A stretch of DNA of 62,251 bases, filler included, from Candidatus Eiseniibacteriota bacterium (GTDB taxonomy: Bacteria; Orphanbacterota; Orphanbacteria; Orphanbacterales; Orphanbacteraceae), in NCBI GenBank assembly GCA_043809585.1. It is 5 parts of 5 records of this genome, joined end to end, with 100 filler letters (N's around TTAATTAATTAA, not from the genome) between each part and the next. Parts side by side here need not be neighbours in the genome. Positions count along the whole stretch, not along the records: positions 16,483 to 33,712 come from JBDROZ010000060.1; 4 more parts are not named here. The stretch is one strand, 5' to 3'. Positions 16,483 to 34,000 of this stretch are shown piece after piece (within the stretch, counting starts at the first letter, position 1; each line of letters begins with the position of its first letter). The notes beneath the pieces are model-generated. The model did no database searches and was not told the origin of the DNA. It saw nothing but the letters and a program-made list of their open reading frames with translations. Position numbers and translations under genes: made by a program.

Positions 16483-16752
16483 CTTTCCTTCGCCGCCTCC
16501 TCGATGGGGCCCGTCGGGCGCTTGGACTTATCGCGACGGCTAGGAGCGATAAGTGGTAGCGCCCGGGGGGAGGCTCTCATGACTACACCTCCGGTGGCGG
16601 AAGTCCGACCGCGCCGGGGTACCTGCCGGAACGAAGCGACGGCGGGTCGGCGCCGGGAGTACCCGGAGCGCGGCAGCGCGAAGGGTGAAAGTCAGCTTCT
16701 CGGCAGGCGATCCGAGCCCTCGCGACGGAGATTCATGCATAATCCAGGCTAG
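16483..16752. mobile_element. Family A repeat, expanded variant with two inserted hairpins (left end lost in gap)
   Basis: Colinear family A blocks (CGCCGCCTCCTCGA; CATGACTAC.CCTCCGGTGGCGG; CAGGCGATCCGAGCCCTCG; TGCATAATCCAGGCTAG) separated by two insertions. Confidence 0.8.
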
Positions 16753-16916
16753 CCTGGGCTACCTTTAGAAAACGAAGAAACCAATCCAGTATGGCCCCGT
16801 AATAGAACTGTCTGGTCGGCTTCGAGTCCGAGTCTTCTTGGCCGGACCGGCCGGTTCCGTTACAATGCTCGAGTCACCGAAAACCGCCTGTCCCGCGCGA
16901 AGGAGGATCGCCTGCC

Positions 16917-19466
16917 ATGCGTTCATGGATCGTTCTCACCCTGTCGCTCGTCCTCGCCGCTGGCGCCGCGCTTGCCGACGGCACGGCCTTTCTCGACTAC
17001 CACCGAGGCACGGGCTATCTCCCCCAGACGCCGAGCGTGACCGGCGGCGGGGCCGCCGCCTTCGCCAACCCGGCCGCGTGGGCGACCACGGGCGACGGCA
17101 TGATGGACTTCTGGTGGAATGACCTCAGTGTCCGGGACGACCATCTCGACAACTGGGGATTCTCCTTCGGGCGCAACATCGGCTTCGCGATGCAGAGAAA
17201 CATCGATTGGACAAGCCCCTCCAGGGAGGGGTCGTACCGGGTCGACGACTATCAGATCGGCTTCGCGGGAGGGGATCGGCGCGGTTTCGTCGGCGCGGCC
17301 TGGCGCTGGTCCGGGGGTGAGTCGGGGCGGCTCGGCCGGGAGAACTCTTTCGTCGCGGGCGCCATGAAGCGCCCGAACCGGTACGTCTCCTTCGGTATGG
17401 CCTCGACCATCTCCGTGCAGTCCGATGCGCGTCTCGGCGTGGTCGACCTCGGCCTTCGCCCCCTCGGAAAGCCGTGGGTCACCGTTTTCGGCGACTACTC
17501 ACTTACGGACCGGGACAATCTCGAGGCGGGCCGATGGGGCGGCGGCGTCGAGGTCCGTCCGTGGCGGGGCATCCATCTCGGCTTCAAGGCCCGCGAGGCG
17601 GAGGACGAGACCGGCGACGACTACGATTACAGCCTGAACTTCGGCGTCACCCTGAACGGAACGGGATTCCACGCGCTCCCCGGATATGACCAAGACGGCG
17701 ACCGGGGCGCGACCACCTATCTCGTGCGGAGCAACCCCCCCTACGCGGGGATTCCCGTCGACCGGTGGCTGCGGAAGATCTTCGAGAAGCCCCGCTACGT
17801 GCCGGTGGATCTCGAGAACAAGCGGATCACCTATCAGAAGGCGCAGTGGTTCGAGGATGAAAGGGTCGCGTGGCTCGATCTGGCGGTCGAGCTCGACCGG
17901 ATCGGCGACGATCCGGCGGTCCGGGGCGTGGTCTTCAACCTGGCGGGCACGGCGCTCTCCCCTTCGATCACCTGGGAGTTCCGGCGGAAGATGGACGATC
18001 TCCGGGCGGGGGGCAAAGAGATCGTCGTCCACATCGACAGGATGACGAACCTCGGTTACTACCTCGCCTGCGGCGCCGACCGGATCAGCATCGATCCCCA
18101 GGGGAATGTGTTCATCCCCGGTCTTGCCGCCCACCGGACCTACATGCGGGGTCTGTTCGACAAGTTCGGCGTCGGTGTCGAAGAGTGGCGCTACTTTACC
18201 CACAAGTCCGCCTTCGAGGGGTTCACCCGGACCGACATGTCCGACGCGGACCGGGAGCAGATCGGCCGTGCCATCGACGTGATCTACGAGACCATGCGGG
18301 AGGGGGTTTGCGAAACCCGGGACATGACCCCCGGCGGGTTCGACGCCCTCGTGGACGGGCAGGCGATCTTCACCGCCCCTCTGGCCCTCGAGGCGGGTCT
18401 CGTCGACACCCTCGCCCGGTGGGACGGGATGGGCGACTGGATCGAGGAGAACCGGGACGGCGCGCGGTTCGCGTCCCGCGCCCCCTACCCGGACGAGAGG
18501 ATTCTCTATGACGAAGCGTGGGGCCGCCCGAAGGAACTCGCCATCGTCTACGCGCTCGGCCAGTGCGCCATGGACACGGGGATCCGGGGGAGGGCGACGT
18601 CGAAGCACATGCGGGAACTCGCGGAGCGCGGCGACGTGGCCGCCGTGGTTCTTCGGGCCGACTCGCCCGGAGGGGACGCGCTTCCGAGCGATCTGATCGC
18701 CGAGGCGACGATGAAGCTCAGGGACGCGGAGAAGCCGGTGGTCGTCTCCCAGGGAGACGTGGCCGGGTCGGGGGGGTATTGGATCAGCATGCGGGGGACC
18801 AAGATCCTCACCACGCCCGTCACGATCACCGGATCGATCGGCGTGATCGGCGGCTGGTTCTGGGACGACGGGATCGGCGGCAAGACGGGCTTCAGCGCCG
18901 ACGGTGTTCAACGGGGCGAACACGCCGATCTCTTCACCGGCATCCGGTTCCCCCTCCTCGGGCGGCTCCCGGAGAGGAATCTGAACGACGAGGAGAAAGC
19001 GGCCATCCGGGGTCTTTTCATGGACCTGTACGGAGATTTCGTGCGGCAGGTCGCCGAGGGCCGCGGGGTTTCGGAAGAGCATGTCCGCGAAGTGGGGGAA
19101 GGCCGGATCTGGATGGGGGACGATGCCGTCGAGCGGAAGCTGGCGGACGAGATCGGAGGACTTCAAGATGCCGTCGCCGAGGCGCGGCGTCTCGCCGGCG
19201 TGGACGAAGAGGAGGAGATGATCGTCACCGAGTTCCCCCCCCGGCCCCGGTTCCGGTTTCCGAACATGGGCGGGAGCCCCTTGGACCTGCTCCTCTCGCC
19301 GCTCGCCGCCCGGCTGGGCGTCGCCCATGCCGCGCCCGGGGAAGAGACCGCCTCCTACGAGGAGACCTATCTGAGGGCCCTCGCCGAATCGCCCGGCGTG
19401 CCCCTCCTTCTGACGCCGCCCGAGTGGATGCCGGAGGAGTACTCGTCGACGGGGGGGAAGCCTTGA
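16917..19466 (+). CDS. sppA: Signal peptide peptidase SppA (S49, tandem domains) with long N-terminal beta-rich extension
   Basis: YYLACGAD, KSAFEGFTR, RADSPGGDA, VAGSGGYWIS, TITGSIGV, GRIWMG, DEIGGL. Signal peptide plus about 270 aa N-terminal domain. Confidence 0.9.
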   Translation: MRSWIVLTLSLVLAAGAALADGTAFLDYHRGTGYLPQTPSVTGGGAAAFANPAAWATTGDGMMDFWWNDLSVRDDHLDNWGFSFGRNIGFAMQRNIDWTSPSREGSYRVDDYQIGFAGGDRRGFVGAAWRWSGGESGRLGRENSFVAGAMKRPNRYVSFGMASTISVQSDARLGVVDLGLRPLGKPWVTVFGDYSLTDRDNLEAGRWGGGVEVRPWRGIHLGFKAREAEDETGDDYDYSLNFGVTLNGTGFHALPGYDQDGDRGATTYLVRSNPPYAGIPVDRWLRKIFEKPRYVPVDLENKRITYQKAQWFEDERVAWLDLAVELDRIGDDPAVRGVVFNLAGTALSPSITWEFRRKMDDLRAGGKEIVVHIDRMTNLGYYLACGADRISIDPQGNVFIPGLAAHRTYMRGLFDKFGVGVEEWRYFTHKSAFEGFTRTDMSDADREQIGRAIDVIYETMREGVCETRDMTPGGFDALVDGQAIFTAPLALEAGLVDTLARWDGMGDWIEENRDGARFASRAPYPDERILYDEAWGRPKELAIVYALGQCAMDTGIRGRATSKHMRELAERGDVAAVVLRADSPGGDALPSDLIAEATMKLRDAEKPVVVSQGDVAGSGGYWISMRGTKILTTPVTITGSIGVIGGWFWDDGIGGKTGFSADGVQRGEHADLFTGIRFPLLGRLPERNLNDEEKAAIRGLFMDLYGDFVRQVAEGRGVSEEHVREVGEGRIWMGDDAVERKLADEIGGLQDAVAEARRLAGVDEEEEMIVTEFPPRPRFRFPNMGGSPLDLLLSPLAARLGVAHAAPGEETASYEETYLRALAESPGVPLLLTPPEWMPEEYSSTGGKP

Positions 19467-19560
19467 TTTCGGTGGGCCGCGATTCGATGCCCGCAACTTC
19501 ACTTGTCGGTCTGTCCGGCTTCGTGCTATGATCCTCCCGAACTCTCACGGGGGGACATCC

Positions 19561-20733
19561 ATGATCAGGGCACCGGAGACCGAGGAGACCGGCGTGAGAG
19601 GGGATCTCTTCGACGGGCACCGCCGCGGCGTCGCCCTCCTCCGGCGGCTTCTGATCAGCCCCGCTCGGGACGACCGGGACCGTTTCGCTTCCTACTGCCT
19701 CGTCTATGTGCGCGCCTACCTGCAGAGAAACTGGCACCGCTGGGCGTCGGGATTCGATTTCGAGTTCGCCACCGCCCTCCTTTCCGCCGCCCACATGGCC
19801 GTCGCCGGCCTTCTGCGTGAGGAAGAAGAGCCGTACCGTCTCGTCCGGCTCGACGCCGAGATGGCGAAACTCTGGCGGCGGAGACCGCCCGTCCCGGGGG
19901 CCCTTCTCGGCGATCCGCCCGATTGGGCGGCCTCTCTCCCGCCGGTCGACGACGAGTACCTCCTTCAGCAACTTCGCCACCTCCTCCGCCTCGAGAGCGG
20001 TCAGGCGATGATCTTGGAATGGAAGAAGACGAACCCGGAGAAGTGGAGGGTGTGGAGCCAATTCAAGAGCCACGCCGCGCGGAGGGAAGATCTCCGCATC
20101 GTGAGGGACGCCCGGGGGTGGTTCGTCTGCGGGCCGGAGTCCGACATGTCCCTCCGGCCCATGAGTCGTGAGGTCGTCGGGGATCTTCTCGGCGCGGGTT
20201 GCTCCACCGTGAGGCGGGCCCTCGAGCTGCTCTCGGCGGAACTCTCTCCGTTGAACGCACACGGCGGGTACTGTGTCCTTTCCGACCTCGTGCTCGTTTA
20301 CATCGATCTCGTGACGAAGAGGCTTCTTTTCGAGGGGAACGGGACGGGAGCGCTCCCGCGCGATCTGGGGCCGCGGTTGACGAGGACCGGTCTTCCCGAG
20401 TCGGTGTGGAGCGAGGGGGTGCGGGAGGATGTTCGTGCCATGGCGGAGGAGTATCTCGAGAGAGACGCCCGCAAGAACGGCGCCTCTCTCGAGTCGGGTT
20501 GTCGTCTCGCCGTGGGGGCCGTCGTGGTCGAGATGATCTCACGGAACTTCGATCTGGGCCGGCCCGCCTGGGCCGGGCTCTCCCAAAAGGGCCTGGCCCT
20601 CTTCCTCGTCCCCGCCCTCACGGGGGAGAGCTACGAGAAGGGCATACGGGAGCGCATCGACTATACGGTTCGGCGGATTCGGAATGATCTGGCGATGACG
20701 GGCGCCCGCCGCCACGGAAGAGAGGGAGCATGA
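19561..20733 (+). CDS. Hypothetical protein, possibly a divergent sigma-70/ECF-like factor
   Basis: Soluble, helical-looking 390 aa ORF with RBS GGGGGA. Basic C-terminal helix (IRERIDYTVRRIRNDL) recalls sigma region 4.2. Translationally coupled to an HxxxCxxC protein. The sigma call is an inference. Confidence 0.45.
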   Translation: MIRAPETEETGVRGDLFDGHRRGVALLRRLLISPARDDRDRFASYCLVYVRAYLQRNWHRWASGFDFEFATALLSAAHMAVAGLLREEEEPYRLVRLDAEMAKLWRRRPPVPGALLGDPPDWAASLPPVDDEYLLQQLRHLLRLESGQAMILEWKKTNPEKWRVWSQFKSHAARREDLRIVRDARGWFVCGPESDMSLRPMSREVVGDLLGAGCSTVRRALELLSAELSPLNAHGGYCVLSDLVLVYIDLVTKRLLFEGNGTGALPRDLGPRLTRTGLPESVWSEGVREDVRAMAEEYLERDARKNGASLESGCRLAVGAVVVEMISRNFDLGRPAWAGLSQKGLALFLVPALTGESYEKGIRERIDYTVRRIRNDLAMTGARRHGREGA

Positions 20734-21287
20734 TGGCGTCCGGCCCCTGCTGGGAAGAACAGCGGATCGAGAGGGCGGCTCTCCGTCTGGTCGACCGGGA
20801 ATCGGCGTCCGGCGGGGGGGACCTCCCCGCGGAGCTGGACTCAATCGTCACCCACGGGAAGGAGTGCGCCCGGTGCCGCGATCTCCTCGCCCTCTTCCTC
20901 GATGTGGAGCGGCAGGTCCGGATCGAGCCTGCGGAGATCGACATGGACCGGATCGTCCTCCTCGAAGTCCGGGAGGGCCCCGAGATCCGCCTCACCGAGA
21001 GGGATCGGGAAGAGGCGCCCTCTGCGCTCGCCGCGGACGCTTCGCCGGCGGTTTCCGGCGGGAGCGAACTCGCCCCCCGCTCCTACGCCAGCGAAGACGG
21101 CCGGTACCGGATCCGGGTGATGCCCAATCGCTCGGGGACGGGCGCGACGGCGATCCTGGTCCAGGGCCCCGGAAGCGATCGGATGCCCTTTCTCCGCGGG
21201 CCGGGCGGGGATCACGAATTCCACGACGGCATTCACGCGGCCCTCCCCGGCCTCCCGGGACCCCGGGTCGAGATCCGTTTCCGTTAA
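20730..21287 (+). CDS. Zinc-binding anti-sigma-like protein (ZAS/zf-HC2-type motif)
   Basis: H42-GKE-C46-AR-C49 plus upstream Cys7; linker with ALAADAS; beta-rich C-terminal domain; no TM; ATGA overlap with upstream gene. Confidence 0.65.
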   Translation: MMASGPCWEEQRIERAALRLVDRESASGGGDLPAELDSIVTHGKECARCRDLLALFLDVERQVRIEPAEIDMDRIVLLEVREGPEIRLTERDREEAPSALAADASPAVSGGSELAPRSYASEDGRYRIRVMPNRSGTGATAILVQGPGSDRMPFLRGPGGDHEFHDGIHAALPGLPGPRVEIRFR

Positions 21288-21302
21288 ACCAGTCGGGGAC
21301 CG

Positions 21303-23471
21303 ATGGACGCAGGGGAAATCCGGGACCTCTACGAAAACATGCGGGCCCTTCTCGAAACGGGTCAGCCCCCGGTCCTCCGGGTGCTGCTCCGCGTCCGGTT
21401 CTTGGAAATCGCCCTCCCCGAAAGCCCCGCCGTCTGGAGCGCCTACGGCTACGAAACCGCCTCCGCCCTCGCTTCGGACCTCGTCGCCGCCGGTCCCGGC
21501 GGTCTCTCTCCCCGCGATCGGATCGCGACCCTCGGTGTGTTCGATCGATGCGCGGCGCTCCCCGTGCCGCCCCACGGAGACCGGGTTTCGTGGGAGAAGG
21601 AGATCGATGGCGCCCGCCGGTTCCTTGCGGGCCCGGAAGCCGGGGATCGCGATCGCCGCGGGTGGGACCGTCTGGAGGAGAGGCCGTCCCGGCTACCGGG
21701 GGATGTCATCGTGCCCGGCGTCGCCCGCCTCCGGGGGAACGATTCCGCCCATCCCCGCCTTCGCGACCTGACCGCCGGCGGTCTCATCCCCGTAACGGTC
21801 CGGGCCGAGGGGGTCCTCCGGGCGAACCCCTCCGGCCGGCGCATGTCGGGGCCGGTGCGACGAGGCCCCGGCGAGGAGTCGCTCCGCCGCGTGCCGGAGG
21901 AGGCGGCCCGTCTTCGCGTGTGGGGCGCTCCTTCCCCCTCCCGCACCCGTTTCGAACTGGAGATGGACCGGACTCCGGCGTCCCTCGACGGGAGATCGTG
22001 CGAACTCGCCCTCGTCCTCGGGGCGGCCGCCGCCTGGTCCGTCCTGGCCCCTCGGTTCCGGTACCGGCGAATCCGGGAGGGCGTCGCGATGACCGGCGTC
22101 GTCTCGAACGGGGAGGTTCGGCCGGTCGAGGGAACGACCCTCGCCGCCAAGGTGGAGGCCTGCTTCCACGGCCCCGTGCGATTCCTCTGCGTGCCCATCT
22201 CCGAGGAGGAGCACGCCTCTTCGATCGCCCGGAATCTCCGGGCCGAGCACCCGGAAAGAGGACTGGGGATCCGGGGGGTCGGGGCGATCCGGGATGTCTG
22301 GGAAGACCGGGACATCTGCGAGGATGTGCGGCGGTCCTTCTTCGGTTGGCTCGTGACCCTCTTCCGCCGGATCGCCGTCAGCCGGACCCTCACCGGGATC
22401 CTCCTGCTGATCGCCGTGCTGCTCGCCTCCCTCGTCGGCCGGGAGTGGTACTTGAACCGGCCTCTCCCCGCCGCCGCCCATTGGGAGGGGGACCGCGTCT
22501 TCGTCGCCAACAGGCACGGCCGGGTCATCTTCGTGATCGACGAGCCGGGCCGGTACCGTCCCCACAACGTCGAGAATGCCACGTTCGACAAGATCGGCGC
22601 CCGCCTCGCCGTCTGGGACCTCGACGGCGACGGCGTGAGCGAAATCCTCGTGATGTTCCGGGGGAACGGCGCGCTGATCGAGCGAATGTCCGCATACGAT
22701 TGTCACGGGCGTCGCCTCTGGTCCCACGACGCGCCGGGTTTCGGGTTTCCGCCGGGCATCACCGAGGATTCCTTTCAGTGGATCGCTTTCTACTCCGCCG
22801 GGACCCGGGAGAGAGGGTCGTTGCAGTTGATGGCCGTCCGCCGGTCCGCCCTCGGTTCCCTCTCGATCGCCGACCGGATCGACGGCGCCACGGGGGAGCA
22901 CCGGGGAATGCTCGCGAACGACGGGCACATGGAAGGGGTCTACCCCCTCGACGCCGACGGAGACGGATCCCTCGAGCTACTCATGAGCGCGACCCACAAC
23001 CCCTCCGGCATGGGGCTCCTCGCGGTGATCCGCCTCGACGGATGGAGGCCCTCCGCCGAGCCCCTCCCGCCCGGCCGAATCCCGCACCTCACGGATCCGA
23101 GCGTCCTGAACGCCGGGGTCGTCGCGGCGATCCGTTTCCCCCTGGACGACCATTCCGTGACCCGTGCCCACGCGCGGGAGATCGGTAAGCGGGGAGGGTT
23201 CGTTCACGTCTGCGTCATCGGCGGCTGGGGAGAGCGGAGCCTGCCCACGGAAAGGGCGGAGTTTCGCTGCGTTCTCTATTATCTCGATTGTTCGGTTCTT
23301 CGCCGGCCGGTGCTGGAGCGGGTGGCCTTCGTCGACTCCTACAGGGCCCTCATCATGGGGTACCACCCGGAATTCACCAATGACGATCTGGACGCGGAGG
23401 CGGAGCGCCTCGCCCGGGGGACCGAGTACCTGACCTCGGAAGGGTGGAGGCCGGTCCCGAGGCGGGAGTGA
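21303..23471 (+). CDS. Single-pass membrane protein: Lon/S16-type protease domain, TM, FG-GAP-like domain
   Basis: LDGRS(232)CELA, VAMTGVVSNGEVRPVEG and LAAK(283)VEA match the Lon DGPSAG/AMTGE/K pattern. No AAA+ Walker motifs seen. TM about aa 362-379, then WDLDGDGVSEIL and LDADGDGSLELL. Confidence 0.75.
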   Translation: MDAGEIRDLYENMRALLETGQPPVLRVLLRVRFLEIALPESPAVWSAYGYETASALASDLVAAGPGGLSPRDRIATLGVFDRCAALPVPPHGDRVSWEKEIDGARRFLAGPEAGDRDRRGWDRLEERPSRLPGDVIVPGVARLRGNDSAHPRLRDLTAGGLIPVTVRAEGVLRANPSGRRMSGPVRRGPGEESLRRVPEEAARLRVWGAPSPSRTRFELEMDRTPASLDGRSCELALVLGAAAAWSVLAPRFRYRRIREGVAMTGVVSNGEVRPVEGTTLAAKVEACFHGPVRFLCVPISEEEHASSIARNLRAEHPERGLGIRGVGAIRDVWEDRDICEDVRRSFFGWLVTLFRRIAVSRTLTGILLLIAVLLASLVGREWYLNRPLPAAAHWEGDRVFVANRHGRVIFVIDEPGRYRPHNVENATFDKIGARLAVWDLDGDGVSEILVMFRGNGALIERMSAYDCHGRRLWSHDAPGFGFPPGITEDSFQWIAFYSAGTRERGSLQLMAVRRSALGSLSIADRIDGATGEHRGMLANDGHMEGVYPLDADGDGSLELLMSATHNPSGMGLLAVIRLDGWRPSAEPLPPGRIPHLTDPSVLNAGVVAAIRFPLDDHSVTRAHAREIGKRGGFVHVCVIGGWGERSLPTERAEFRCVLYYLDCSVLRRPVLERVAFVDSYRALIMGYHPEFTNDDLDAEAERLARGTEYLTSEGWRPVPRRE

Positions 23472-23490
23472 TGGGGTGGGGGTTCCGGCG

Positions 23491-23740
23491 CGAAGTCGGG
23501 TCTTTCTCGGACTCCTCCTCTGCACCTTGGAGCAGTCGTGCTCGTGGGCGGTATCCGTCCGGAGTGGGCGGGTCGGGGGAGCGGCTTCGGGAGTGATGGG
23601 GGCATAGCCGGGGAGTTGTTGCCGCCTTTCTGGGCGCCTCCTCTACGAGCCCGGAGAAAGGGAGGGTTCTCTCCCGCCGTTCGACGAGCGTTCAAGTCTG
23701 CCCCTCTATCCCTCCCTCAGCCGCCCCCCCGCCCCGCCGG
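23491..23740 (-). repeat. Structured intergenic repeat family B, copy 2 (inverted)
   Basis: Reverse complement aligns with 12246-12495. Confidence 0.85.
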
Positions 23741-23785
23741 GGCTCCACTCTCACTCCGAAGTGCCAAGGGAGTCGGTGAGGTGCC

Positions 23786-23887
23786 GCCTTTCGGTACCAG
23801 ATTCTCCCGGAGCGAAGCGAAGGGGTTTCTGGTTCCGAAAGGCCACTCCCGGGGCGAAGCGAAGGGGTTTCTGGTTCCGAAAGGCCG
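23786..23887. repeat. REP-like hairpin with a 42-bp tandem duplication
   Basis: CTCCCGGRGCGAAGCGAAGGGGTTTCTGGTTCCGAAAGGCC at 23804 and 23846; upstream GCCTTTCGGTACCAGA is its imperfect inverted complement. Confidence 0.8.
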
Positions 23888-23932
23888 CGTATCAGGTAAG
23901 ACGGGCGGAGCGTTTTCTTGTATGCTCAATCC

Positions 23933-24838
23933 ATGGTCAAAAAGAGAAAACCGCTTGGCGAGGAGCGGTTCTGGATCAATGGCCGGTTCGTCGGGGACGA
24001 CGGGGCGACCATCTCCCTTCTCGACCGGGGTGTTCTCTTCGGCGACGCCCTTTACGAGGTGGTGCGCTTCTACCGCCGCCGGCTCTTCCTCCTGGACGGG
24101 CATCTCGACCGTCTCTTCGAAGAAGCGGCGACGATCGGGCTTCCGGCCCCCTGCGGCCGGGAGGAGATCGGACGGGCCATCGAAGGGCTCGCGGCCCGCG
24201 GCGAGGAGGAGGATGGACTGGTGCTTCTCCATTGGACCCGGGGGGAAGGCCCGCGAAGACTGGCGCCTCCGCCGGGGCTTCGGGGGAATCTCTTCGCCAT
24301 CCGGCTCCCCCTGCCCGCGCTCCCGCGGAGGGCCCGCCGCGAAGGGGTTTCGGTCGTGACCCTCCCCGATCGACGCTGGCCGGGCGCGGACATCAAGAGC
24401 GTCAACCTCCTCGCGAATGTCCTCGCGCGGAAGGTCGCGGAAGAGCAGGGGGCCCACGAAGCCCTCCTCTACCGGGGGAAGGGCGACCGCGCCCGCCTCA
24501 CGGAAGGCACGTCGTCCTCCTTCTTCTTCGTCCTCGGCGGCGTTCTGGTGACGCCCGCCGTGCGGGGGCTTCTCCCCGGCATCACCCGGGACGCGGTGCT
24601 CCGGGTCGCCCGGGAATCGGAGATCCCCTTCGAAGAGAGGACGGTCCGGCTCGGCGAACTCCCCTCCGCGTGGGAGGTGTTCCTGACCGCCACATCCGCC
24701 GAGATCCTCCCGGTCCGCTCCATCGACGGCCGCACGCCGGCGTCAGCCACGCCCGGCCCCCTCACGATCCGCCTGATCGAGGGTTTCCGGCGCTACCGGC
24801 GGCGGATCCTCCGGGCCGTTCCCCCCGCCCGGCCCTAG
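23933..24838 (+). CDS. Aminotransferase class IV (D-amino acid / branched-chain aminotransferase-like)
   Basis: DRGVLFGDALYEV, HLDRL, IKSVNLL (PLP Lys), EGTSSSFF, LLPGITR, EVFLTAT. Confidence 0.92.
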   Translation: MVKKRKPLGEERFWINGRFVGDDGATISLLDRGVLFGDALYEVVRFYRRRLFLLDGHLDRLFEEAATIGLPAPCGREEIGRAIEGLAARGEEEDGLVLLHWTRGEGPRRLAPPPGLRGNLFAIRLPLPALPRRARREGVSVVTLPDRRWPGADIKSVNLLANVLARKVAEEQGAHEALLYRGKGDRARLTEGTSSSFFFVLGGVLVTPAVRGLLPGITRDAVLRVARESEIPFEERTVRLGELPSAWEVFLTATSAEILPVRSIDGRTPASATPGPLTIRLIEGFRRYRRRILRAVPPARP

Positions 24839-24969
24839 CCTTCGCTCCCGGCGTTTGGCCCCTCCCCATCGAATTCCGGGGACCCTGGACAGGGGGGATG
24901 GGTTCCGGCATACTTTCATGTCCCTCTCGAAGTCGGAAAACGGAGCCCGGATTGGGGAGAGTCGGAATC

Positions 24970-26457
24970 ATGAACGTGGTCTACGTTTCCTCCGAAGTCG
25001 TGCCCTTCGCCAAGACCGGCGGTCTCGCCGACGTGGCGGGGGCCCTACCGCCCGCCCTGGCCGCCCGGGGCCACCGGGTGTCGGTGGTCATGCCCTTCTA
25101 CCGATGCGTGCGGGACGGCGGATATCCCCTGACGGAGACGGAGCGGGCCGTCGTCGTTTCCATGGAAGATCGCGAAGAGACGGCCCGGATTCGCACCATG
25201 CCCATGGAAGGCGCGAAGAGGGGGGCCTACTTCTTCGTCGAGCACCCGCGCTTCTTCGAGAGGGGGAGCGGGCTCTACGGAACGGCGGATGGGGACTATC
25301 CGGACAACGACGAGCGCTTCGCCTTCTTCTCGAAGGCGGTGGCCAAGTGGCTCGCCGGGCAGGGCGAGCCGGTCGACATCGTGCACGTCAACGATTGGCA
25401 ATCGGCGCTCCTCCCGATCTATCTCAAACTTTGGTACGGCGGGAAGCCACCGCTCGCGAACGTCCGGTCGGTCCTGACCATCCACAATCTCGCCTATCAG
25501 GGCCTCTTCGATCCCCGGCGGTACACGATCACCGGCCTCCCCTACGGTCTCTACAAGCCCCACGGCGGCCTCGAGTTCTGGGGACGGATGAACTACCTGA
25601 AGGGGGGCATCCTCTACGCCGACGCGATCACCACCGTGAGCCGCCGGTACGCCGAGGAGATCCGGACCGAGGAGTTCGGCGCGGGATTGGACGGCGTACT
25701 CCGGGACCGGGAGGGGGCGGTGTTCGGCATCCAGAACGGGATCGATCCGGAGGTGTGGAATCCGGCGGCGGACGAACTCATCCCCGCGATCTACTCCGCC
25801 CAGAACCTGGGAGGAAAGGCGAACTGCAAGAGGGCCCTCCAGGAGGAGTGCGGTCTGGAGAGGGACCCGGCGATTCCGCTCTTCGCCATGATCTCCCGCC
25901 TGGCCGACCAGAAGGGACTCGACCTACTCGTCGGCGTTCTGGAAAAGCTGAAGCGGCGGAAGTTCCAGCTCGTTCTTCTCGGCACGGGGGACGAGAAGTA
26001 CCACCAGATCCTCGGCGCCCTCGCGAAGAGCCGGAAGAAACGCCTTTCCGTGAACCTCCGGTTCGACGACCGCCTCGCCCACCGGATCGAGGCCGGGGCG
26101 GACATCTTCCTCATGCCTTCCCGCTACGAGCCGTCGGGTCTGAACCAGCTTTACAGTCTCCGGTACGGCACGGTGCCTCTCGTGCGCGCCGTCGGGGGAC
26201 TCGCCGACACGGTGACCGACTGCACGGAGGAGACGCTCCGGACGGGGACGGCGACGGGATTTCGATTCGATGAATACTCGGTGGACGCATTCGCGGAAGC
26301 GTGGCTTCGTGCCCTCGAACTCTTCCGGGACCGGAAAGCGTGGGGCCGGCTCATGGCGGCCGGGATGAAGCAGGACTGGTCGTGGGACCGGAGCGCCGCG
26401 GAGTACGAGGAGCTTTACGAGAGGGTGCGCGCCCGGCGCGGCGCCCCGACATCTTGA
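24970..26457 (+). CDS. glgA: Glycogen synthase
   Basis: SEVVPFAKTGGLADV, HVNDWQ, TIHNLAYQG, SRLADQKG, MPSRYEPSGLNQ, GGLADTV. Confidence 0.96.
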   Translation: MNVVYVSSEVVPFAKTGGLADVAGALPPALAARGHRVSVVMPFYRCVRDGGYPLTETERAVVVSMEDREETARIRTMPMEGAKRGAYFFVEHPRFFERGSGLYGTADGDYPDNDERFAFFSKAVAKWLAGQGEPVDIVHVNDWQSALLPIYLKLWYGGKPPLANVRSVLTIHNLAYQGLFDPRRYTITGLPYGLYKPHGGLEFWGRMNYLKGGILYADAITTVSRRYAEEIRTEEFGAGLDGVLRDREGAVFGIQNGIDPEVWNPAADELIPAIYSAQNLGGKANCKRALQEECGLERDPAIPLFAMISRLADQKGLDLLVGVLEKLKRRKFQLVLLGTGDEKYHQILGALAKSRKKRLSVNLRFDDRLAHRIEAGADIFLMPSRYEPSGLNQLYSLRYGTVPLVRAVGGLADTVTDCTEETLRTGTATGFRFDEYSVDAFAEAWLRALELFRDRKAWGRLMAAGMKQDWSWDRSAAEYEELYERVRARRGAPTS

Positions 26458-26477
26458 GAGGAGCGGGCCGAGCCACG

Positions 26478-28628
26478 ATGCCCCAGAAAACGATTCACTT
26501 CGCCATGGCCCTTCACGCGCACCAGCCGACGGGCAACTTCGACCACGTCTTCCGGGAGTCTTTCGAGAAGTGCTACGCCCCGCTCCTCGAGGAGCTGGAC
26601 CGGCATCCCGGCATTCCCATGACGCTCCATTACAGCGGCATCCTCCTCGAGTGGCTGGAGGAGAACGAGCCCGGCTACCTGGACCGCCTGAAGGGGATGG
26701 TCGGTCGGGGGCAGGTGGAACTCCTCGGGGGCGGCTTCGGCGAGCCGATCCTCGTCATGCTCTCCGACCGGGACCGCCTCGGCCAGATCCGGACGATGAG
26801 CGCGTGGCTCGAGAGGCGCTTCGGGGTCCGGCCCCGGGGGGCGTGGCTCACCGAGCGGGTCTGGGAGCAGTGTCTCGCCCACGATCTGGGGGAGGCGGGC
26901 GTCGAGTTCGCCATCGTCGACGACTCCCACTTCCGCCTCTCCGGCCTCCGGGACGAAGACCTGCTCGGGTCGTACGTCACCGAGGACCGGGGGCGGACGA
27001 TCCGGCTCTTCCCCTCGAGCGAGGCGCTCCGCTATCACATCCCTTTCCGGACCGTGGAGGAGACGATCGAATTCTTCGCTTCCCGGGCGACGACATCGGG
27101 GGACCGGCTCCTCGTCTACGGCGACGACACCGAGAAATTCGGCTCCTGGCCCGGCACCCATGAACATGTCTACGAGAGAGGATGGCTCTCCCGGTTCTTC
27201 ACGGCCCTCGAGGAGAACCGGGAGTGGCTCCGGGTCCACCGGCTCTCCGACACCCTGCCGATCCCGCCCCTCGGACGGGCGTACATTCCCGACGCGAGCT
27301 ACCGGGAGATGACCGAGTGGGCGCTCCCGACGAAGGCCCGGGAGGAGTTCGAGGCGCTCCGCCGCGATCTCGGCGAGTCGATGATGAAGCGGGCCGCCCC
27401 CTTCTTCCGGGGGGGGAACTGGAGGACCTTCCTCTCCAAGTATCCCGAGTCGGGCGAGATGTACGGCAAGATGATGGACGTGAGCCGCCGCGTGGCGGCC
27501 CTCCCGGAGGGGGATCCCGCGCGGGGGGAGGCGGAGAGGGAGCTCTACCGGGGGCAGACGAACTGCGCTTACTGGCACGGTGTCTTCGGCGGCCTCTATC
27601 TGCCCCACCTCCGGTTCGCCCTCTATCGGAAACTGATCGCCGCGGAGAACCTCGCCGACCGGGCGACCCGGGGGACGAAGAGCTGGGCCTCGGTGGAGAC
27701 CGGCGACTACGACTTCGACGGCGCCGACGAGGCCTGCCTCGGGTCGGACAAACTCGCGCTCTACCTGCACGCCCGCCGGGGGGGGCACGCGTGGGAAATC
27801 GACGACCGGGAGCGGGCCGTCAATCTCACCGCGGGAATGACCCGGCGGCGGGAGCCGTACCACGCCGAGGTGGCGGACGCGGCAACGCCCGCCGAGGGGG
27901 ACGTGGCGAGCATCCACGATCGTACGACGGCGAAAGAGGAGGGTCTCGAGGCCCTTCTCGTCTACGACCGGAACCGCCGGGAAAGCCTGGTCGATCACTT
28001 CTTCGCCCCCGGCGCGACCCTCGATGACGTCGCGGGGGCGGCGGATTCGGAGCGGGGGGACTTCCACTCGTCGCCGTACGAGATGAAGACGGCCGCCGGG
28101 AAGGGGGCCGCGTCGGTTCGCTTCGCCCGGAGCGGTTCGGTCCTTGTCGAGGGGGCGGGGGGGGCGCCCGCGCGCGTCGAACCCGTGCGCGTCGAAAAGG
28201 AAGTCACGCTGGAGCGGGGCGGGTCCGCCTTCACCGTACGCTACCTCGTCCGGAACGAGGGGAAGAAGCGACTGAAGACGGTATTCGCCGTCGAGTTCGC
28301 CTTCGCCCTCCTCGCCGGGAACGCGCCGGACCGCTATCTCCTCCGGGAAGGGGAGAACGTGGGGCCCCTCGAGAGCCGCCTCGATCTACCGGCGGCGAAG
28401 CGGTACTCCGCCCGGGACGAGTGGCTCGGCCTCGAGGCGGGGATCGTCCTGGAGAAGGAGGCGCCCGCCTGGATCTTCCCCATCATGACGGTCTCCCTCT
28501 CCGAAGGGGGATTCGAAGCGGTGTACCAGAGCACGATCGTTCTTCCCCGCTGGAAACTGGAACTGGGGGCCGGCGAGGAGTGGAGTGTCGCGATCGAGCA
28601 CTTCCTCATCCCGGCGAAACGGGGCTGA
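26478..28628 (+). CDS. GH57 4-alpha-glucanotransferase / alpha-amylase
   Basis: HAHQPTGNF, GAWLTERVWE, YGDDTEKFG, SYREMTEW, YWHGVFGGLYLPHLR, SLSEGGFEAVYQ. Confidence 0.92.
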   Translation: MPQKTIHFAMALHAHQPTGNFDHVFRESFEKCYAPLLEELDRHPGIPMTLHYSGILLEWLEENEPGYLDRLKGMVGRGQVELLGGGFGEPILVMLSDRDRLGQIRTMSAWLERRFGVRPRGAWLTERVWEQCLAHDLGEAGVEFAIVDDSHFRLSGLRDEDLLGSYVTEDRGRTIRLFPSSEALRYHIPFRTVEETIEFFASRATTSGDRLLVYGDDTEKFGSWPGTHEHVYERGWLSRFFTALEENREWLRVHRLSDTLPIPPLGRAYIPDASYREMTEWALPTKAREEFEALRRDLGESMMKRAAPFFRGGNWRTFLSKYPESGEMYGKMMDVSRRVAALPEGDPARGEAERELYRGQTNCAYWHGVFGGLYLPHLRFALYRKLIAAENLADRATRGTKSWASVETGDYDFDGADEACLGSDKLALYLHARRGGHAWEIDDRERAVNLTAGMTRRREPYHAEVADAATPAEGDVASIHDRTTAKEEGLEALLVYDRNRRESLVDHFFAPGATLDDVAGAADSERGDFHSSPYEMKTAAGKGAASVRFARSGSVLVEGAGGAPARVEPVRVEKEVTLERGGSAFTVRYLVRNEGKKRLKTVFAVEFAFALLAGNAPDRYLLREGENVGPLESRLDLPAAKRYSARDEWLGLEAGIVLEKEAPAWIFPIMTVSLSEGGFEAVYQSTIVLPRWKLELGAGEEWSVAIEHFLIPAKRG

Positions 28629-28654
28629 TCCGAGGCGGGAGACGGGGGACGCAG

Positions 28655-31102
28655 TTGGCGAAGAAGCGCAAGTCCGATGGCGACATCTACCTGATTCTCC
28701 ACGGGCACTTCTATCAGCCCCCCCGGGACAACCCGTGGCTCCGGGTCATCGAGACCCAGGAGAGCGCCTCCCCTCACCACGACTGGAACGCCCGGATCCA
28801 CGCCGAGTGTTACCGCCCGAACATCCGCTCCCGCCGCATGGACGGCGACGGGCGGATCCGGGACATCGTCAACAATCTCGAGCAGATCAGCTTCAACTTC
28901 GGACCGACCCTGCTCACGTGGATCGAGCGGGAAGACCCGGAGGTGTACGAGAGGATTCTGGAGGCGGACCGGAAGAGCGCCGCGGCGAGGGGCGGCCACG
29001 GGAACGCGATCGCCCAAGCGTACCACCACGTCATTCTCCCCCTCGCGGGGCGGGAAGACCGGCGCCTCCAGATCCGGTGGGGATTGGGGGATTTCGAGCG
29101 CCGCTTCGGACGGAAGTCGGAAGGGCTCTGGCTTCCGGAGACGGCGATTCACGGCGGCGCGGCGATCGACCTCGCCCGCGCGGGGATCCGGTTTCTCCTT
29201 CTCTCCCCCCATCAGGCCGGGGCTTTTCGCCCGATCGGGGGAGAGGCGTGGGCGGACGTCACGGACGGTTCCATCGACCCCCGCCGCCCGTACCGCCTCT
29301 TTCCCGACCCGGAAGACCCCGCCCTCTCGATCGACGTCTTCTTCTACGACGGGGGGCTCGCGACGGGGATCAGCTTCGAGCACTTTCTCCGGAACGCGGA
29401 CGATTTGGGGCGCCGGCTTCGGGCCTCGGCGGGGGCGCCCGACTTCGGCCCCCGGCTCGTGAGCGTGGCGACCGACGGCGAGGTGTACGGCCACCACGAG
29501 CCTTTCGCCGACATGTGCCTGGCCGCCCTCTACGGCGGCGTCACCGAGCGGGAGGGGCTGACGCCGACGAACCCGGGCGAGTACCTCGATCTGGTGCCGC
29601 CGGTCCACGAGGTGGCTCTGAAACCGGGGCCGGAGGGGGAAGGGACGGCGTGGAGCTGCGCCCACGGCGTCGGCCGCTGGTACCGGGACTGCGGGTGCGC
29701 CATGGCGCCGAAGCCCGGCTGGACCCAGCAGTGGCGGACCCCTTTCCGGGAGGCGGTGGACGGTCTCCGGAGCGACCTCGGCGCGATCTTCGACGTCGAG
29801 GGGGGGCGGATCTTCACCGAACCCGCGGAGGCCCTCGGCCGGTTCGTCCGCGCCCGGGGGGAGGCGACGGAGCCCAGCTGGCGGGTCTTCCTCGAGGAGC
29901 AGGGGAGGCCGGACGTCGGCTTCGACGACGGCGGGGCGGAGAGGGCTTATCTTCTCCTCGAGATGATGTACGGCGCGGAGCGGATGGCGACGAGCTGCGG
30001 CTGGTTCTTCGACGACGTGGCGGGCATCGAGGCGTCCCAGAACCTCATGTTCGCCGGCCACGCCATCGACCTCGCGCGGACGCTCGATCCGGAGAGGGCT
30101 TCTTCGGCGGAGAACCGGTTCCGGAAGAAGATGCGCGCCGCCCGATCGAATGTGCCGGAGGAAGGGGATGGGCAGAGCGTCTTCGACGAGCGGACGGCGG
30201 GGGCCCGGGCGACGCTCGACGACTGGGTCGCCTTCGCGGCCACGGCGCGGCTCCTCGACGTGGACGTGCCGGAGCGCCTTCTCGGCGGGCGCCGCATGGA
30301 GGCGGAGGGGGAGGAGCGATGGAAGGGGGAACGGTTCCGGGCCCTCCGGGGCGTGATCCGGGTGAGGGAGTTTTTCTATCGCAGCCCTGAGGATCGCCGC
30401 TTCCTCGCCGTTCTCGGGGTCGGGCCCCGGGTGGCGGTCTGGGTGGGCGATCCGGAAATGGATACGTCGGTGGTGGAGAGGGCGTCGGACATGGAGGATG
30501 TGGAGGGGATGATGCCCTTCGCGCCCCGGCGTCTCGTCGACCTGCCCGGCGAACTCCGCCGCCTTCTCGTCGACGATCTGGTGGAGGAGGAGAAGAGGAC
30601 GTTCGTGGACGAGGAGGAGGCGTTCTTCGGTTGGATCGGCGCCCTCGCGACGCTGATCGAGAGGGCGGGGCTCACGGGACCTCCATGGTTCCGGCGAAGC
30701 GTCCCGCTGCTTCTCGAGCGGCGGCTCCGCCGGGCGGTGGCGGCGCTCCTCCGGCCGGGCCCGGACGGGGATCGGGAGGCCACGCTCGGTGAGATGAAGG
30801 ATACGCGCCGCCTCGCGGAGCGTTTCGGGGTGGAGGTGGACGCGTCGGTGATCGAGGAGGATGTGGGGGGTGAGGCGCTCCGCCGTCTTCGTCTCCGGCG
30901 GGAGGGGGATCCGGAAGCGTCGGCCGCTTCGGCCCTCGAGATCCTCCGGGCCGTCTCGGACAACGGCTTCCCCGTCCTCGGCCTCGGCGAACTTCAAGAC
31001 GAGTTCTTCGATCAGCTGAAGAGCGGGATCGGCACGCCGCTCAGAGAGCAGTCCCGCGACCTCGGTTTGTGGTTGGACTTCTCGCCCTCGATTCTCGGGT
31101 AA
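28655..31102 (+). CDS. GH57-family glycoside hydrolase (DUF3536-type)
   Basis: HGHFYQPPRDNPW, SFNFGPTL, WLPETA, ATDGEVYGHH, WSCAHGVGRW, SCGWFFDD; TTG start after GGGGGA. Confidence 0.9.
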   Translation: MAKKRKSDGDIYLILHGHFYQPPRDNPWLRVIETQESASPHHDWNARIHAECYRPNIRSRRMDGDGRIRDIVNNLEQISFNFGPTLLTWIEREDPEVYERILEADRKSAAARGGHGNAIAQAYHHVILPLAGREDRRLQIRWGLGDFERRFGRKSEGLWLPETAIHGGAAIDLARAGIRFLLLSPHQAGAFRPIGGEAWADVTDGSIDPRRPYRLFPDPEDPALSIDVFFYDGGLATGISFEHFLRNADDLGRRLRASAGAPDFGPRLVSVATDGEVYGHHEPFADMCLAALYGGVTEREGLTPTNPGEYLDLVPPVHEVALKPGPEGEGTAWSCAHGVGRWYRDCGCAMAPKPGWTQQWRTPFREAVDGLRSDLGAIFDVEGGRIFTEPAEALGRFVRARGEATEPSWRVFLEEQGRPDVGFDDGGAERAYLLLEMMYGAERMATSCGWFFDDVAGIEASQNLMFAGHAIDLARTLDPERASSAENRFRKKMRAARSNVPEEGDGQSVFDERTAGARATLDDWVAFAATARLLDVDVPERLLGGRRMEAEGEERWKGERFRALRGVIRVREFFYRSPEDRRFLAVLGVGPRVAVWVGDPEMDTSVVERASDMEDVEGMMPFAPRRLVDLPGELRRLLVDDLVEEEKRTFVDEEEAFFGWIGALATLIERAGLTGPPWFRRSVPLLLERRLRRAVAALLRPGPDGDREATLGEMKDTRRLAERFGVEVDASVIEEDVGGEALRRLRLRREGDPEASAASALEILRAVSDNGFPVLGLGELQDEFFDQLKSGIGTPLREQSRDLGLWLDFSPSILG

Positions 31103-31113
31103 ACTCCCACTCA

Positions 31114-31160
31114 CTCCGAAGCCATATCTTCCTCGGACTCCTCCTCTGCACCCTGGAATG
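31114..31160 (-). repeat. Family B 3'-end fragment
   Basis: TTCCTCGGACTCCTCCTCTGCACCCTGGAATG is the near-exact reverse complement of 12450-12481. Confidence 0.75.
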
Positions 31161-31190
31161 AAGATTCTCGCGCGCGATACCCTCCCGGAG

Positions 31191-31502
31191 GGGGCCCTCG
31201 GGGGTTTTCCCGGCAGGACACGGTAGAGTACGGGCAGGTCCTGACCGCTCCTGTCCACTGCGGTGCTCGGCAGTCGCGGCTTTGTCCTCGATGGTCCGAT
31301 TCTCGTGAACCGCACGTATCGTCTTCTGCTGATGCTTGGGTCCATCGGGATCTGGCGCTTGGTACCTGCGCGCCTCGTGGACTCCTGTCGCGGCCACCCG
31401 CCCGTGGCGGGGAGTCTTCAGCAAGGACTACCGAGGGAGAGATCCTCCCTCCCCGTTCGTCCTGAGTAGGACCGAAGGTCCGTATCGAAGGGCGGGCCGG
31501 GG
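31191..31502. repeat. Structured intergenic repeat family C, copy 2
   Basis: Same flanking blocks as 11795-12102 around a different, self-complementary core. Confidence 0.75.
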
Positions 31503-31561
31503 GAAAGGCACCTCCCCACTTGTGATATACTTAATGCGTAACTTCTTACCCCCGAGGTGCC

Positions 31562-32749
31562 GTGGTGCATCGAGCCGTCCTTATCGTTGCTGCGTTTCTC
31601 CTCATCGCCTGGATGCCCGCCCTCGCCACGACCTGGTATGTCCTCCCCGATTCCACCGGTGATGCGCCGACCATTCAGGCGGCGATTGATTCGAGTTCGG
31701 ATGGGGACACGGTGCTGGTGGCGGCGGGGACGTATTACGTTAATCTGGTAATCCTGTTGAAGGCCAACATCAGTCTCATCGGGGAATCGGGGCCGGAGTG
31801 GACGATCCTAGATGGGACTTATCCGACGGGTGGAGCGCAGAGCAGAAGGGTCGTCATTCGCGCTCAGGGATCCGACAATCTCTTAATCGAAGGCTTCACG
31901 ATCCGTGAAGGAAGGCCGAACGGGTATCATGCGTTCTATGGGGGTGGCATACATGTATACGAGGGGCGATGCACGATTCGGGGGAACATCCTTCGTGACA
32001 ATGAAAACACGTTTGGGGCCGCCATATGTTTTGGATGGAGATCGTCGGAAACGGGGGGATCTGTAATCGAGGAAAACTGGGTTGCCGACAATCTCTCAGA
32101 TACTTGTGTCGCTGGTGCTTACATGGAGGGTATTGAAGGGCCGATCTGGGTCAGAAACAACGTCTTCACCGGAAATGTGGGCAGGTATGCTGCCGTGAGA
32201 TCATTAGACACTGAGCTGTTCGTCCAAGCGAACTTGTGCACGGCAAATGTAGCGGAGAAATACTGCGTGAGGAACGAGTACGGGGTCTTTTGGGCTGAGG
32301 GCAACCTCTTGATTCATAATGATGCGTCGGGCATTGCGAGCCGTGAGGGGACTATTCGGGGAAACACATGTGTGGAGAATACGGGCTATGGCCTTGTTGT
32401 GGGTTACGGGAATCTCTACAACAACATCTCTGCAGGGAATGGCCTTGATGGCATTAGCGCCTATAACGCGGGCAATGTAACCTGCAATGATTCCTGGGGT
32501 AATGGAGGACAGGAATATTCCTTTCTCGGGACGATCTCAGATACCACCGGGAATAATTCTGCCGATCCTCTTTTCTGCAATCCCCTAGCGGGCGACTACT
32601 CCATCGCCTCCGAATCTCCTTGCGCTCCGGGGAATTCGGGCGGCTGCGGCCTGATCGGGGCACTCCCGGTCGGGTGCACGGCAACTTCGGTGCCGGCCGG
32701 TTCCTTCGAGCCCTCCTCTTGGGGAAGGGTGAAGAAGCTGTTCAGGTGA
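31562..32749 (+). CDS. Secreted right-handed beta-helix protein with C-terminal 'SWGRVKKLFR' tail
   Basis: Signal peptide, TIQAAID...GDTVLVAAGTY, IEGFTI..G, Asn-rich repeats, ADPLFC, SPC...CGLIGA. Visibly lower GC than neighbours. Confidence 0.85.
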   Translation: MVHRAVLIVAAFLLIAWMPALATTWYVLPDSTGDAPTIQAAIDSSSDGDTVLVAAGTYYVNLVILLKANISLIGESGPEWTILDGTYPTGGAQSRRVVIRAQGSDNLLIEGFTIREGRPNGYHAFYGGGIHVYEGRCTIRGNILRDNENTFGAAICFGWRSSETGGSVIEENWVADNLSDTCVAGAYMEGIEGPIWVRNNVFTGNVGRYAAVRSLDTELFVQANLCTANVAEKYCVRNEYGVFWAEGNLLIHNDASGIASREGTIRGNTCVENTGYGLVVGYGNLYNNISAGNGLDGISAYNAGNVTCNDSWGNGGQEYSFLGTISDTTGNNSADPLFCNPLAGDYSIASESPCAPGNSGGCGLIGALPVGCTATSVPAGSFEPSSWGRVKKLFR

Positions 32750-33712: not shown

Positions 33713-33812
33713 NNNNNNNNNNNNNNNNNNNNNNNNNNNNNNNNNNNNNNNNNNNNTTAATTAATTAANNNNNNNNNNNNNNNNNNNNNNNNNNNNNNNN
33801 NNNNNNNNNNNN
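33713..33812. other. Artificial contig linker
   Basis: N44-TTAATTAATTAA-N44. Confidence 0.97.
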
Positions 33813-33972
33813 TCCGTCACGAGGGCTCGGATCGCCTGACGAGAAGCTGACTTGGACGAGCCGCCACCGGAGGCGTAGTCATGCACTACGTCGAGGAGGC
33901 GGCGACGGAAAGGAGGCTTCGCAGGCGGCGATCCGAGATCGCAGTAGGAGATTCGTGCATAATCCAGGCTAG
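33813..33972 (-). mobile_element. Family A repeat, inverted, truncated by gap
   Basis: Reverse complement of most of 6933-7115 with few substitutions; ends in TGCATAATCCAGGCTAG. Confidence 0.85.
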
Positions 33973-34000
33973 GATGTAAGGAAGAGAGGCGGTTCGAAGA

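Follow-up and report, generated by a model that had tools for sequence, protein, structure and literature searches.

A candidate transmembrane signalling module of Candidatus Eiseniibacteriota combining an ATPase-less Lon receptor-protease, an anti-sigma-like protein and a possible sigma-like factor

Can a bacterium pass a signal from outside the cell to its transcription machinery through a single membrane protein that cuts a soluble anti-sigma-like partner? This question is raised by three adjacent genes of a Candidatus Eiseniibacteriota bacterium (assembly GCA_043809585.1). They lie in the window, the whole stretch of 62,251 nt that was analysed, which consists of five joined parts and along which all positions are counted; the genes are on the part derived from record JBDROZ010000060.1 (positions 16,483-33,712). 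Gene 1 encodes a soluble candidate output regulator, gene 2 a small soluble protein with a zinc motif reminiscent of anti-sigma factors, and gene 3 a single-pass membrane protein that joins a Lon-type protease to a putative outward-facing propeller. We propose, with a probability of roughly 0.6, that genes 1 to 3 work together as a single transmembrane signalling module in which a soluble anti-sigma-type protein would be cut to free the product of gene 1. To our knowledge, the established routes from the cell envelope to sigma factors depend on membrane-spanning anti-sigma factors that are cut successively by dedicated site-1 and site-2 proteases.

The three open reading frames (ORFs) all lie on the + strand and follow each other closely (Table 1). 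The stop codon of gene 1 and the start codon of gene 2 share an ATGA overlap, and the TAA stop codon of gene 2 is followed by a 15-nt gap and the ATG of gene 3. Both the ORF call and a direct reading of the bases thus agree with the initial annotation, made from the sequence alone, which had described three co-oriented genes linked by an ATGA overlap and a 15-nt gap.

Table 1. Positions of the three genes and of their domains and motifs in the window
Feature	Position	Strand	Basis
Gene 1, 390 amino acids, soluble, candidate output regulator (sigma-like)	19561..20733	+	ORF; AlphaFold2 (AF2) model, mean predicted local distance difference test (pLDDT) 75.4
Gene 1 residues 15-158, helical domain whose modelled fold resembles sigma region 2	19603..20034	+	
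Gene 1 residues 280-389, C-terminal helical domain; best structural match, body of the lambda Q antiterminator	20398..20727	+	
Gene 2, 185 amino acids, soluble anti-sigma-like protein, candidate substrate	20730..21287	+	ORF; alignment of 7 orthologues
Candidate zinc site of gene 2, C7 and H42-x3-C46-x2-C49, in the helical N-terminal domain predicted to bind gene 1	20748..20876	+	7/7 orthologues
Gene 2 L100-A101-A102 (ALAA|D), candidate cleavage site that would leave an ssrA-like C-terminal degron	21027..21035	+	Invariant LAA
Gene 2 residues 115-185, conserved C-terminal domain	21072..21284	+	Conserved blocks: RV motif around R129, GATA segment, HAxLP
Gene 3, 722 amino acids, single-pass membrane protein, predicted cytoplasmic Lon-type protease and outward propeller	21303..23471	+	ORF; AF2 model, pLDDT 91.8
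Gene 3 residues 1-125, N-terminal helical domain	21303..21677	+	Helices 3-125 in the AF2 model
Gene 3 residues 126-345, Lon (S16) proteolytic domain; S232, 21996-21998; K283, 22149-22151	21678..22337	+	
Gene 3 residues 357-384, transmembrane helix	22371..22454	+	Hydrophobicity; model helix 361-384
Gene 3 residues 385-722, predicted extracytoplasmic beta-rich domain with FG-GAP-type DxDGD motifs	22455..23468	+	Profile matches; all-beta model

The receptor-protease encoded by gene 3

Searched as a profile against solved structures, gene 3 retrieved Archaeoglobus fulgidus LonB (1z0e_A, E 4.3e-9) and the LonC-type peptidase TTC1975 (E 1.7e-7), and the GxS and K columns of the gene 3 family align to the GDSAS and QKIEAA segments of A. 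fulgidus LonB, which contain its catalytic residues. Residues 126-345 have the Lon_C fold, and every row listed by Foldseek for the gene 3 model is a Lon entry (best E 1.8e-9). The residues G230-R-S232, A262-M-T-G265 and K283 were confirmed in the sequence and appear to provide the Ser-Lys pair of a Lon protease. An alignment of 111 rows was examined, made up of the window protein and 110 of the 150 listed profile matches; the 40 left out comprised fragments, proteins with an unusual length and rows with a short or split best stretch. S232, G230 and G265 are kept in 111/111 of these rows, K283 in 109/111 and T264 in 100/111. This conservation, in which the flanking glycines and threonine share, together with the alignment of S232 and K283 to the catalytic residues of LonB, makes it very improbable that the Lon-like domain is a non-catalytic scaffold comparable to that of RadA/Sms, with any signalling achieved by binding alone. 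An active protease is the reading followed here.

The family is large: 758 proteins were retrieved by an exhaustive profile search at E<=1e-3, and 355 and 34 of them pass thresholds of 1e-10 and 1e-30, respectively. It includes proteins of the cultured species Gracilimonas mengyeensis and of a candidate division KSB1 metagenome-assembled genome (MAG). Ten representatives were looked up by name, and the seven that carry a source name are all called 'hypothetical protein'.

The ATPase module that usually accompanies Lon proteases is missing. No AAA family of Pfam matches gene 3, in which the protease domain follows a helical stretch of just ~125 residues, and a Walker A pattern is absent from the window protein and found in 3/111 relatives at scattered positions. 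The median position of the catalytic Ser across the family, 272, is too early in the chain to leave room for a full ATPase upstream. From residues ~64-70 onward, gene 3 superposes loosely on the helical part that precedes the protease in LonA (6on2_D 493-774; 227 aligned residues, root-mean-square deviation 5.7), and we infer from this comparison that the N-terminal helical domain may be a vestige of an AAA+ lid. LonA, LonB and LonC share the proteolytic fold and the Ser-Lys pair with gene 3. Canonical LonA and LonB, however, contain an AAA+ module, whereas gene 3 lacks it and is fused instead to a sensor ectodomain. LonB, like gene 3, is a membrane-anchored protein.

Gene 3 contains a single hydrophobic segment (residues 357-375), the only stretch whose Kyte-Doolittle mean exceeds 1.6. 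An N-terminal hydrophobic segment was found in 0/111 relatives, and the number of Lys and Arg residues averages 4.3 before the helix against 1.6 after it, being higher before in 103/111 relatives. Because there is one transmembrane segment, no hydrophobic segment at the N-terminus and more positive charge on the N-terminal side, the protease should be cytoplasmic and the putative propeller outside. As for the latter, DLDGD occurs at residue 439 and DADGD at residue 550, and the C-terminal part of the whole-protein profile matches solved FG-GAP-type proteins, namely CRTAC1 (9etn_A, 4.2e-8) and a PL11 lyase (4cag_A, 4.6e-8).

The picture of gene 3 drawn in the initial annotation therefore changes little. 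Its Lon/S16-like Ser-Lys pair without an AAA+ module agrees with the near-invariance of S232 and K283 and with the absence of Walker A, its single transmembrane segment with the sole hydrophobic stretch. A protease facing outside, which it had named as fatal to the idea, runs counter to the charge bias and to the predicted cytoplasmic location. Its FG-GAP repeats are suggested by the two DxDGD motifs and by profile matches of ~4e-8, but not by Pfam FG-GAP_3, which scores 23.1 bits (E 1.1e-4), below its cut-off of 26.9 bits.

Gene 2, its Ala-Ala motif and the linkage of the three genes

If gene 3 is a protease, what could be its substrate? Gene 2 carries HxxxCxxC and an upstream ligand, the motif of zinc-binding anti-sigma (ZAS) domains. 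C7, H42, C46 and C49 do not vary among the 7 orthologues, the codons of H42, C46 and C49 were confirmed, and no hydrophobic segment is present (highest 19-residue Kyte-Doolittle mean 0.58). The initial annotation was accordingly right about the H42/C46/C49 motif and the lack of a transmembrane segment. It had also expected zf-HC2, which was not recognised: PF13490 does not match gene 2, appears in 1/7 orthologues at E 3.4 and in 0/2 of the paralogues linked to extracytoplasmic function (ECF) sigma factors that are described below. No Pfam family at all matches gene 2 at E<=1, and none is significant among the 7 orthologues. Since zf-HC2 falls short of significance, the ZAS reading rests on motif and context. 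A match of gene 2 to a type IIG restriction-enzyme model of PADLOC (E 0.011) was weak and implausible, and was rejected.

A second motif is more constant than the zinc ligands. L100-A101-A102 lies in a linker whose other residues vary, and is unchanged in 7/7 orthologues; its Ala-Ala pair is kept in 9/9 sequences once the two ECF-linked paralogues are added, and [LF]AA occurs in 21/22 distinct gene 2-type sequences, the remaining one having PAAA. HxxxCxxC, on the other hand, is present in 9/9 seed sequences and in only 4/13 metagenomic gene 2-like proteins. Because HxxxCxxC is often lost and Ala-Ala retained, the zinc site would be optional and the Ala-Ala site the constant of the family. The ALAADAS linker to which the initial annotation had pointed is thus the very segment that holds the conserved LAA motif, and cleavage there may be envisaged by analogy with a characterised system discussed below. 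The conserved C-terminal domain might be where the protease docks.

The three genes are also linked in relatives. Genomic comparison covered nine genomes of one phylum, reached through a locus in another MAG. A gene 3 homologue was found at E<=1e-10 in 7/9 of them and a full-length orthologue (E<=1e-147) in 4/9; the same four genomes, and only they among the nine, have genes 1 and 2, always beside gene 3. G001, G008 and G009 share the order 1-2-3, gene 1 of G009 being cut by a contig end. In G007 (L017, G007:C28, 2864-6812) the order is 1-3-2, with all three genes still adjacent. Two further genomes, G002 and G006, contain paralogous modules in which a more distant gene 3 homologue is directly followed by a canonical ECF sigma factor and then by a gene 2 homologue. 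The two sigma factors match Sigma70_r4_2 (2.6e-7 and 3.4e-13, respectively) and Sigma70_r2 (4.8e-4 and 9e-11), and the gene 2 homologues next to them have HxxxCxxC, an Ala-Ala motif (YALAAR; IPAAAR) and a C-terminal domain of the gene 2 type. The gene 3 homologue of the G006 module is broken by one in-frame TAA (L015, G006:C51, 4131-6392), which could be a sequencing error or the mark of a pseudogene.

Metagenomes extended this linkage to a distant branch. Six distant members of the gene 3 family, used as query, led to 28 loci. Un-iterated seed profiles detected a gene 1-like ORF in 5 of them and a gene 2-like ORF in 5, all beside the gene 3 homologue, and after two local rounds of iteration these numbers rose to 19/28 and 13/28. 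Of 17 loci with at least 1.9 kb of upstream sequence, 14 have gene 1 upstream of gene 3, one has it downstream and in two it is absent. The conserved synteny that the initial annotation had suggested looking for is therefore apparent both in the genomes, where the genes are adjacent in 4/4, and in the metagenomes, where a gene 1-like ORF flanks gene 3 in 15/17 informative loci. A sub-branch (L068, L069-L076) has longer gene 3 homologues of ~1040 amino acids, two of which stand in tandem in L068 (4158-10493), with a gene 1-like ORF and a weak gene 2-like ORF before them.

Other searches for relatives returned little. A word-indexed protein search found 2 relatives per gene besides the window proteins, one of those of gene 3 being a hypothetical protein of a Candidatus Eisenbacteria MAG, and a scan of genome contigs gave one truncated locus. 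No relative was found when metagenomes were scanned with a 3-sequence alignment. At E<=1, none of the three proteins matches an NCBIfam family, PADLOC gave no match for genes 1 and 3, and single-sequence searches of the PDB with the three proteins yielded nothing useful.

Several of these results weigh against a single module acting on gene 2. The zinc motif is missing from most metagenomic gene 2-like proteins and zf-HC2 is not recognised; E-values obtained after iteration are inflated by self-inclusion, so that only the first-round matches are independent; and in two metagenomic loci (L049, L064) neither partner accompanies the gene 3 homologue. The last point would fit a Lon domain that acts elsewhere, for instance on gene 1 as a pro-factor, on misfolded membrane proteins or on its own chain, genes 1 and 2 being merely co-expressed with it, and Lon domains are described as usually broad in specificity in the introduction of a preprint (bioRxiv 10.1101/2024.05.08.593097). 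We nevertheless regard a different substrate as quite unlikely, in view of the tight linkage, with reading frames that overlap or nearly touch, and of the family-wide [LF]AA in the variable linker of gene 2, which matches the mapped cleavage site and degron of CalpT. Cleavage of gene 2 by gene 3 is hence retained as the preferred reading.

Gene 1 and its predicted complex with gene 2

What would the cleavage of gene 2 release? The complex of gene 1 with residues 1-100 of gene 2 was predicted with an ipSAE of 0.88 in each of 3 runs, whereas the best of 3 controls scored 0.00. The mark applied to ipSAE is reached by 58/80 solved complexes and 2/110 mismatched pairs, rates that are rough here since custom alignments were used. 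At least 40% of contacts recur between the runs and the partner pLDDT is at least 62. The contacts predicted with confidence lie between residues 7-25 and 45-68 of gene 2 and residues 48-57, 132-140 and 183-199 of gene 1. The modelling proposed in the initial annotation for this pair thus predicts an interface, and gene 2 may be pictured as a partner that sequesters gene 1.

The nature of gene 1 is harder to establish. Its AF2 model was built from 6 sequences. An unbiased fold search with this model returned sigma factors in 20 of the top 50 rows, with middling Z scores, and all 20 align within gene 1 residues ~14-186, mostly 15-158; another 6-7 of the top 50 rows are initiation complexes. A protein atlas offered no more than clusters without names and some weak leads, among them Sigma70_r2, found on 15-19% of the members of three clusters with scores <=0.86.

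Sequence comparison speaks against a sigma factor. Pfam Sigma70 matches neither gene 1 nor any of 22 family members, and a Sigma70_r2 scan of the four related genomes listed 84 matches, none of them at the gene 1 loci. Alignment by hhalign of gene 1 with 9 ECF sigma factors from the four genomes gave a probability of 1.2% with 6 sequences and of 0.16% with a 25-sequence profile, and sequence and profile searches of the PDB with gene 1 returned no sigma factor. Foldseek found nothing for the gene 1 model at E<=0.001 in the PDB or BFVD. No region-4 domain is among the matches listed for gene 1, whose C-terminal domain is instead closest to lambda Q. The expectation of sigma regions 2 and 4 finds one point of contact, in that the N-terminal domain of the model resembles region 2 with a middling Z score, and none in sequence or profile likeness; the initial annotation had itself called the sigma identity its weakest link, a judgement with which the lack of sequence likeness to sigma factors agrees. 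As a true sigma factor, suggested by its modelled fold, gene 1 is unproven.

It may be argued that gene 1 is not a sigma factor and that another transcription-related protein or adaptor, made of sigma-2-like and lambda-Q-like domains, is sequestered by gene 2, the rest of the scheme being unchanged. The failed sequence comparisons are in keeping with this idea. Three observations make it the less probable choice, although a real contender: canonical ECF sigma factors hold the equivalent place in two paralogous modules, the fold list of the N-terminal domain is dominated by sigma region 2, and the predicted contacts with gene 2 use the sigma-2-like domain. The reading preferred here remains that of a sigma-like output regulator, and gene 1 could represent a new class of sigma-like factor. 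More tentatively, with odds somewhat below even, we envisage a widespread class of propeller-controlled, ATP-independent Lon receptor-proteases in which one cut exposes an LAA degron and the partner of 330-390 amino acids is mostly a new, divergent factor directed at RNA polymerase, combining sigma-2-like and lambda-Q-like parts.

Proposed mechanism, known systems and surroundings of the locus

A sequence of events may be proposed on these grounds. The propeller of gene 3 would sense a signal outside the cell, its helical domain and ATPase-less Lon protease facing the cytoplasm, where the N-terminal domain of gene 2, with its C/HxxxCxxC zinc site, would hold gene 1 inactive. The signal would activate the Lon domain, probably through a change of oligomeric state, and the linker of gene 2 would then be cut after L100-A101-A102. 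A cut after A102 is proposed because the invariant ALAA|D of gene 2 closely fits the LAA|A scheme of CalpT. The N-terminal fragment, ending in ...ALAA, would carry an ssrA-like degron and might be removed by housekeeping proteases such as ClpXP, so that gene 1 would be freed to act on transcription, presumably as a sigma-type factor of RNA polymerase.

The closest precedent is the CalpL-CalpT-CalpS system. As reported in the preprint, CalpL of Candidatus Cloacimonas consists of an N-terminal domain, a Lon domain and SAVED, and must oligomerise to act (bioRxiv 10.1101/2024.05.08.593097). According to the same source, the cut made by CCaCalpL in CalpT falls within LAAA, between A204 and A205. 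The LAA end left behind acts as a degron, and CalpS is freed only once cellular proteases have removed the fragment (bioRxiv 10.1101/2024.05.08.593097). The authors compare the LAA of CalpT with RseA, whose cleavage exposes a C-terminal VAA degron before a cytoplasmic protease completes its destruction; CalpT itself is presented there as a MazF-like domain joined to DUF2080 (bioRxiv 10.1101/2024.05.08.593097). It is not a ZAS protein.

Both systems are three-gene cassettes in which an N-terminal domain comes before a Lon domain devoid of ATPase and a soluble partner holds, or here would hold, a sigma-type factor, and the motif at the LAA|A site reported for CalpT is conserved in gene 2. They differ in their components. 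The sensor of CalpL is a cytoplasmic SAVED domain that binds cyclic tetra-adenylate (cA4), whereas gene 3 has no SAVED and relies on a transmembrane helix and a putative extracytoplasmic FG-GAP propeller. CalpT is MazF-like with DUF2080, while gene 2 is of the HxxxCxxC type and does not qualify as a CalpT-type partner; CalpS is an ECF-like sigma factor, whereas gene 1 has no recognisable ECF sigma sequence. CalpL belongs to a type III CRISPR-associated system, whereas no CRISPR-like array was seen in the present window with Tandem Repeats Finder. CalpL is not among the listed sequence and structure matches of gene 3, lists that are filled by Lon entries and hence uninformative on this point. 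The likeness is likeliest one of logic and not of family, which would make the present module a transmembrane counterpart of CalpL-CalpT-CalpS. The analogy drawn in the initial annotation keeps its logic, strengthened by the LAA|A site of CalpT; CalpT being no ZAS protein, the analogy does not extend to the family of the partner.

The RseA/sigma-E pathway (DegS, RseP, ClpXP) follows the same course as that proposed here, from an outside signal to an anti-sigma cut, an Ala-Ala degron and a cytoplasmic protease. RseA itself spans the membrane, and two separate proteases act on it there. In the proposed module, by contrast, the anti-sigma-like protein is soluble and a single Lon-fold receptor-protease would cut it inside the cell; the same two features set it apart from the sigma-W pathway. 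Gene 2 resembles the ZAS factors RsrA, ChrR and RsiW in having HxxxCxxC with an upstream Cys and a short helical N-terminal domain predicted to bind a sigma-2-like domain. It differs from them in scoring below zf-HC2 significance, in belonging to a family with many members devoid of the cysteines, and in a release that would occur by proteolysis at LAA instead of redox or direct signal sensing.

No description of such a module was found in a full-text literature search, in which part of the literature was represented by title and abstract. As proposed, it is a form of regulated proteolysis in which an anti-sigma-type protein would be cut by a Lon domain that lacks an ATPase, the novelty being that this domain is built into a transmembrane receptor. 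If this is true, it would constitute an undescribed way of passing a signal across a membrane, in which one Lon-fold receptor-protease and a soluble anti-sigma-like protein do the job of the site-1/site-2 routes, and the principle of CalpL (an ATPase-less Lon domain, an LAA cut and a degron) would reach from CRISPR defence to ordinary transmembrane signalling.

The four flanking genes scanned have housekeeping functions and encode an S49 peptidase, a class IV aminotransferase, a glycogen synthase and a GH57 enzyme. An alignment of four genomes revealed no shared promoter-like block upstream of gene 1. Sequencing-run searches matched 4 DNA runs, each with less than half of the sampled words, and no RNA run was among the matches listed for the module.

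Directly upstream of gene 1 lies the gene of the two-domain S49 (SppA-type) peptidase (849 amino acids, 16917-19466). An ORF of similar size (871 against 849 amino acids) occupies the equivalent place in G008 (L016 7071-9686), and G001 has instead a 973-amino-acid ORF with a P-loop motif (GPGSGKT) upstream of gene 1. This arrangement probably reflects a gene order common to close relatives and not a component of the module. A 42-bp unit is present twice with 97% identity at 23804-23886, within the 446 bp that separate gene 3 from the aminotransferase gene. Further downstream, at 32786-33042 (+), a match to Rfam RF02005 (group II intron D1-D4; 70.7 bits, E 9.3e-18) lies within a region (32001-34000) with a lowered G+C of 0.57 and a raised GC skew of 0.18; the matched feature is probably a mobile group II intron.

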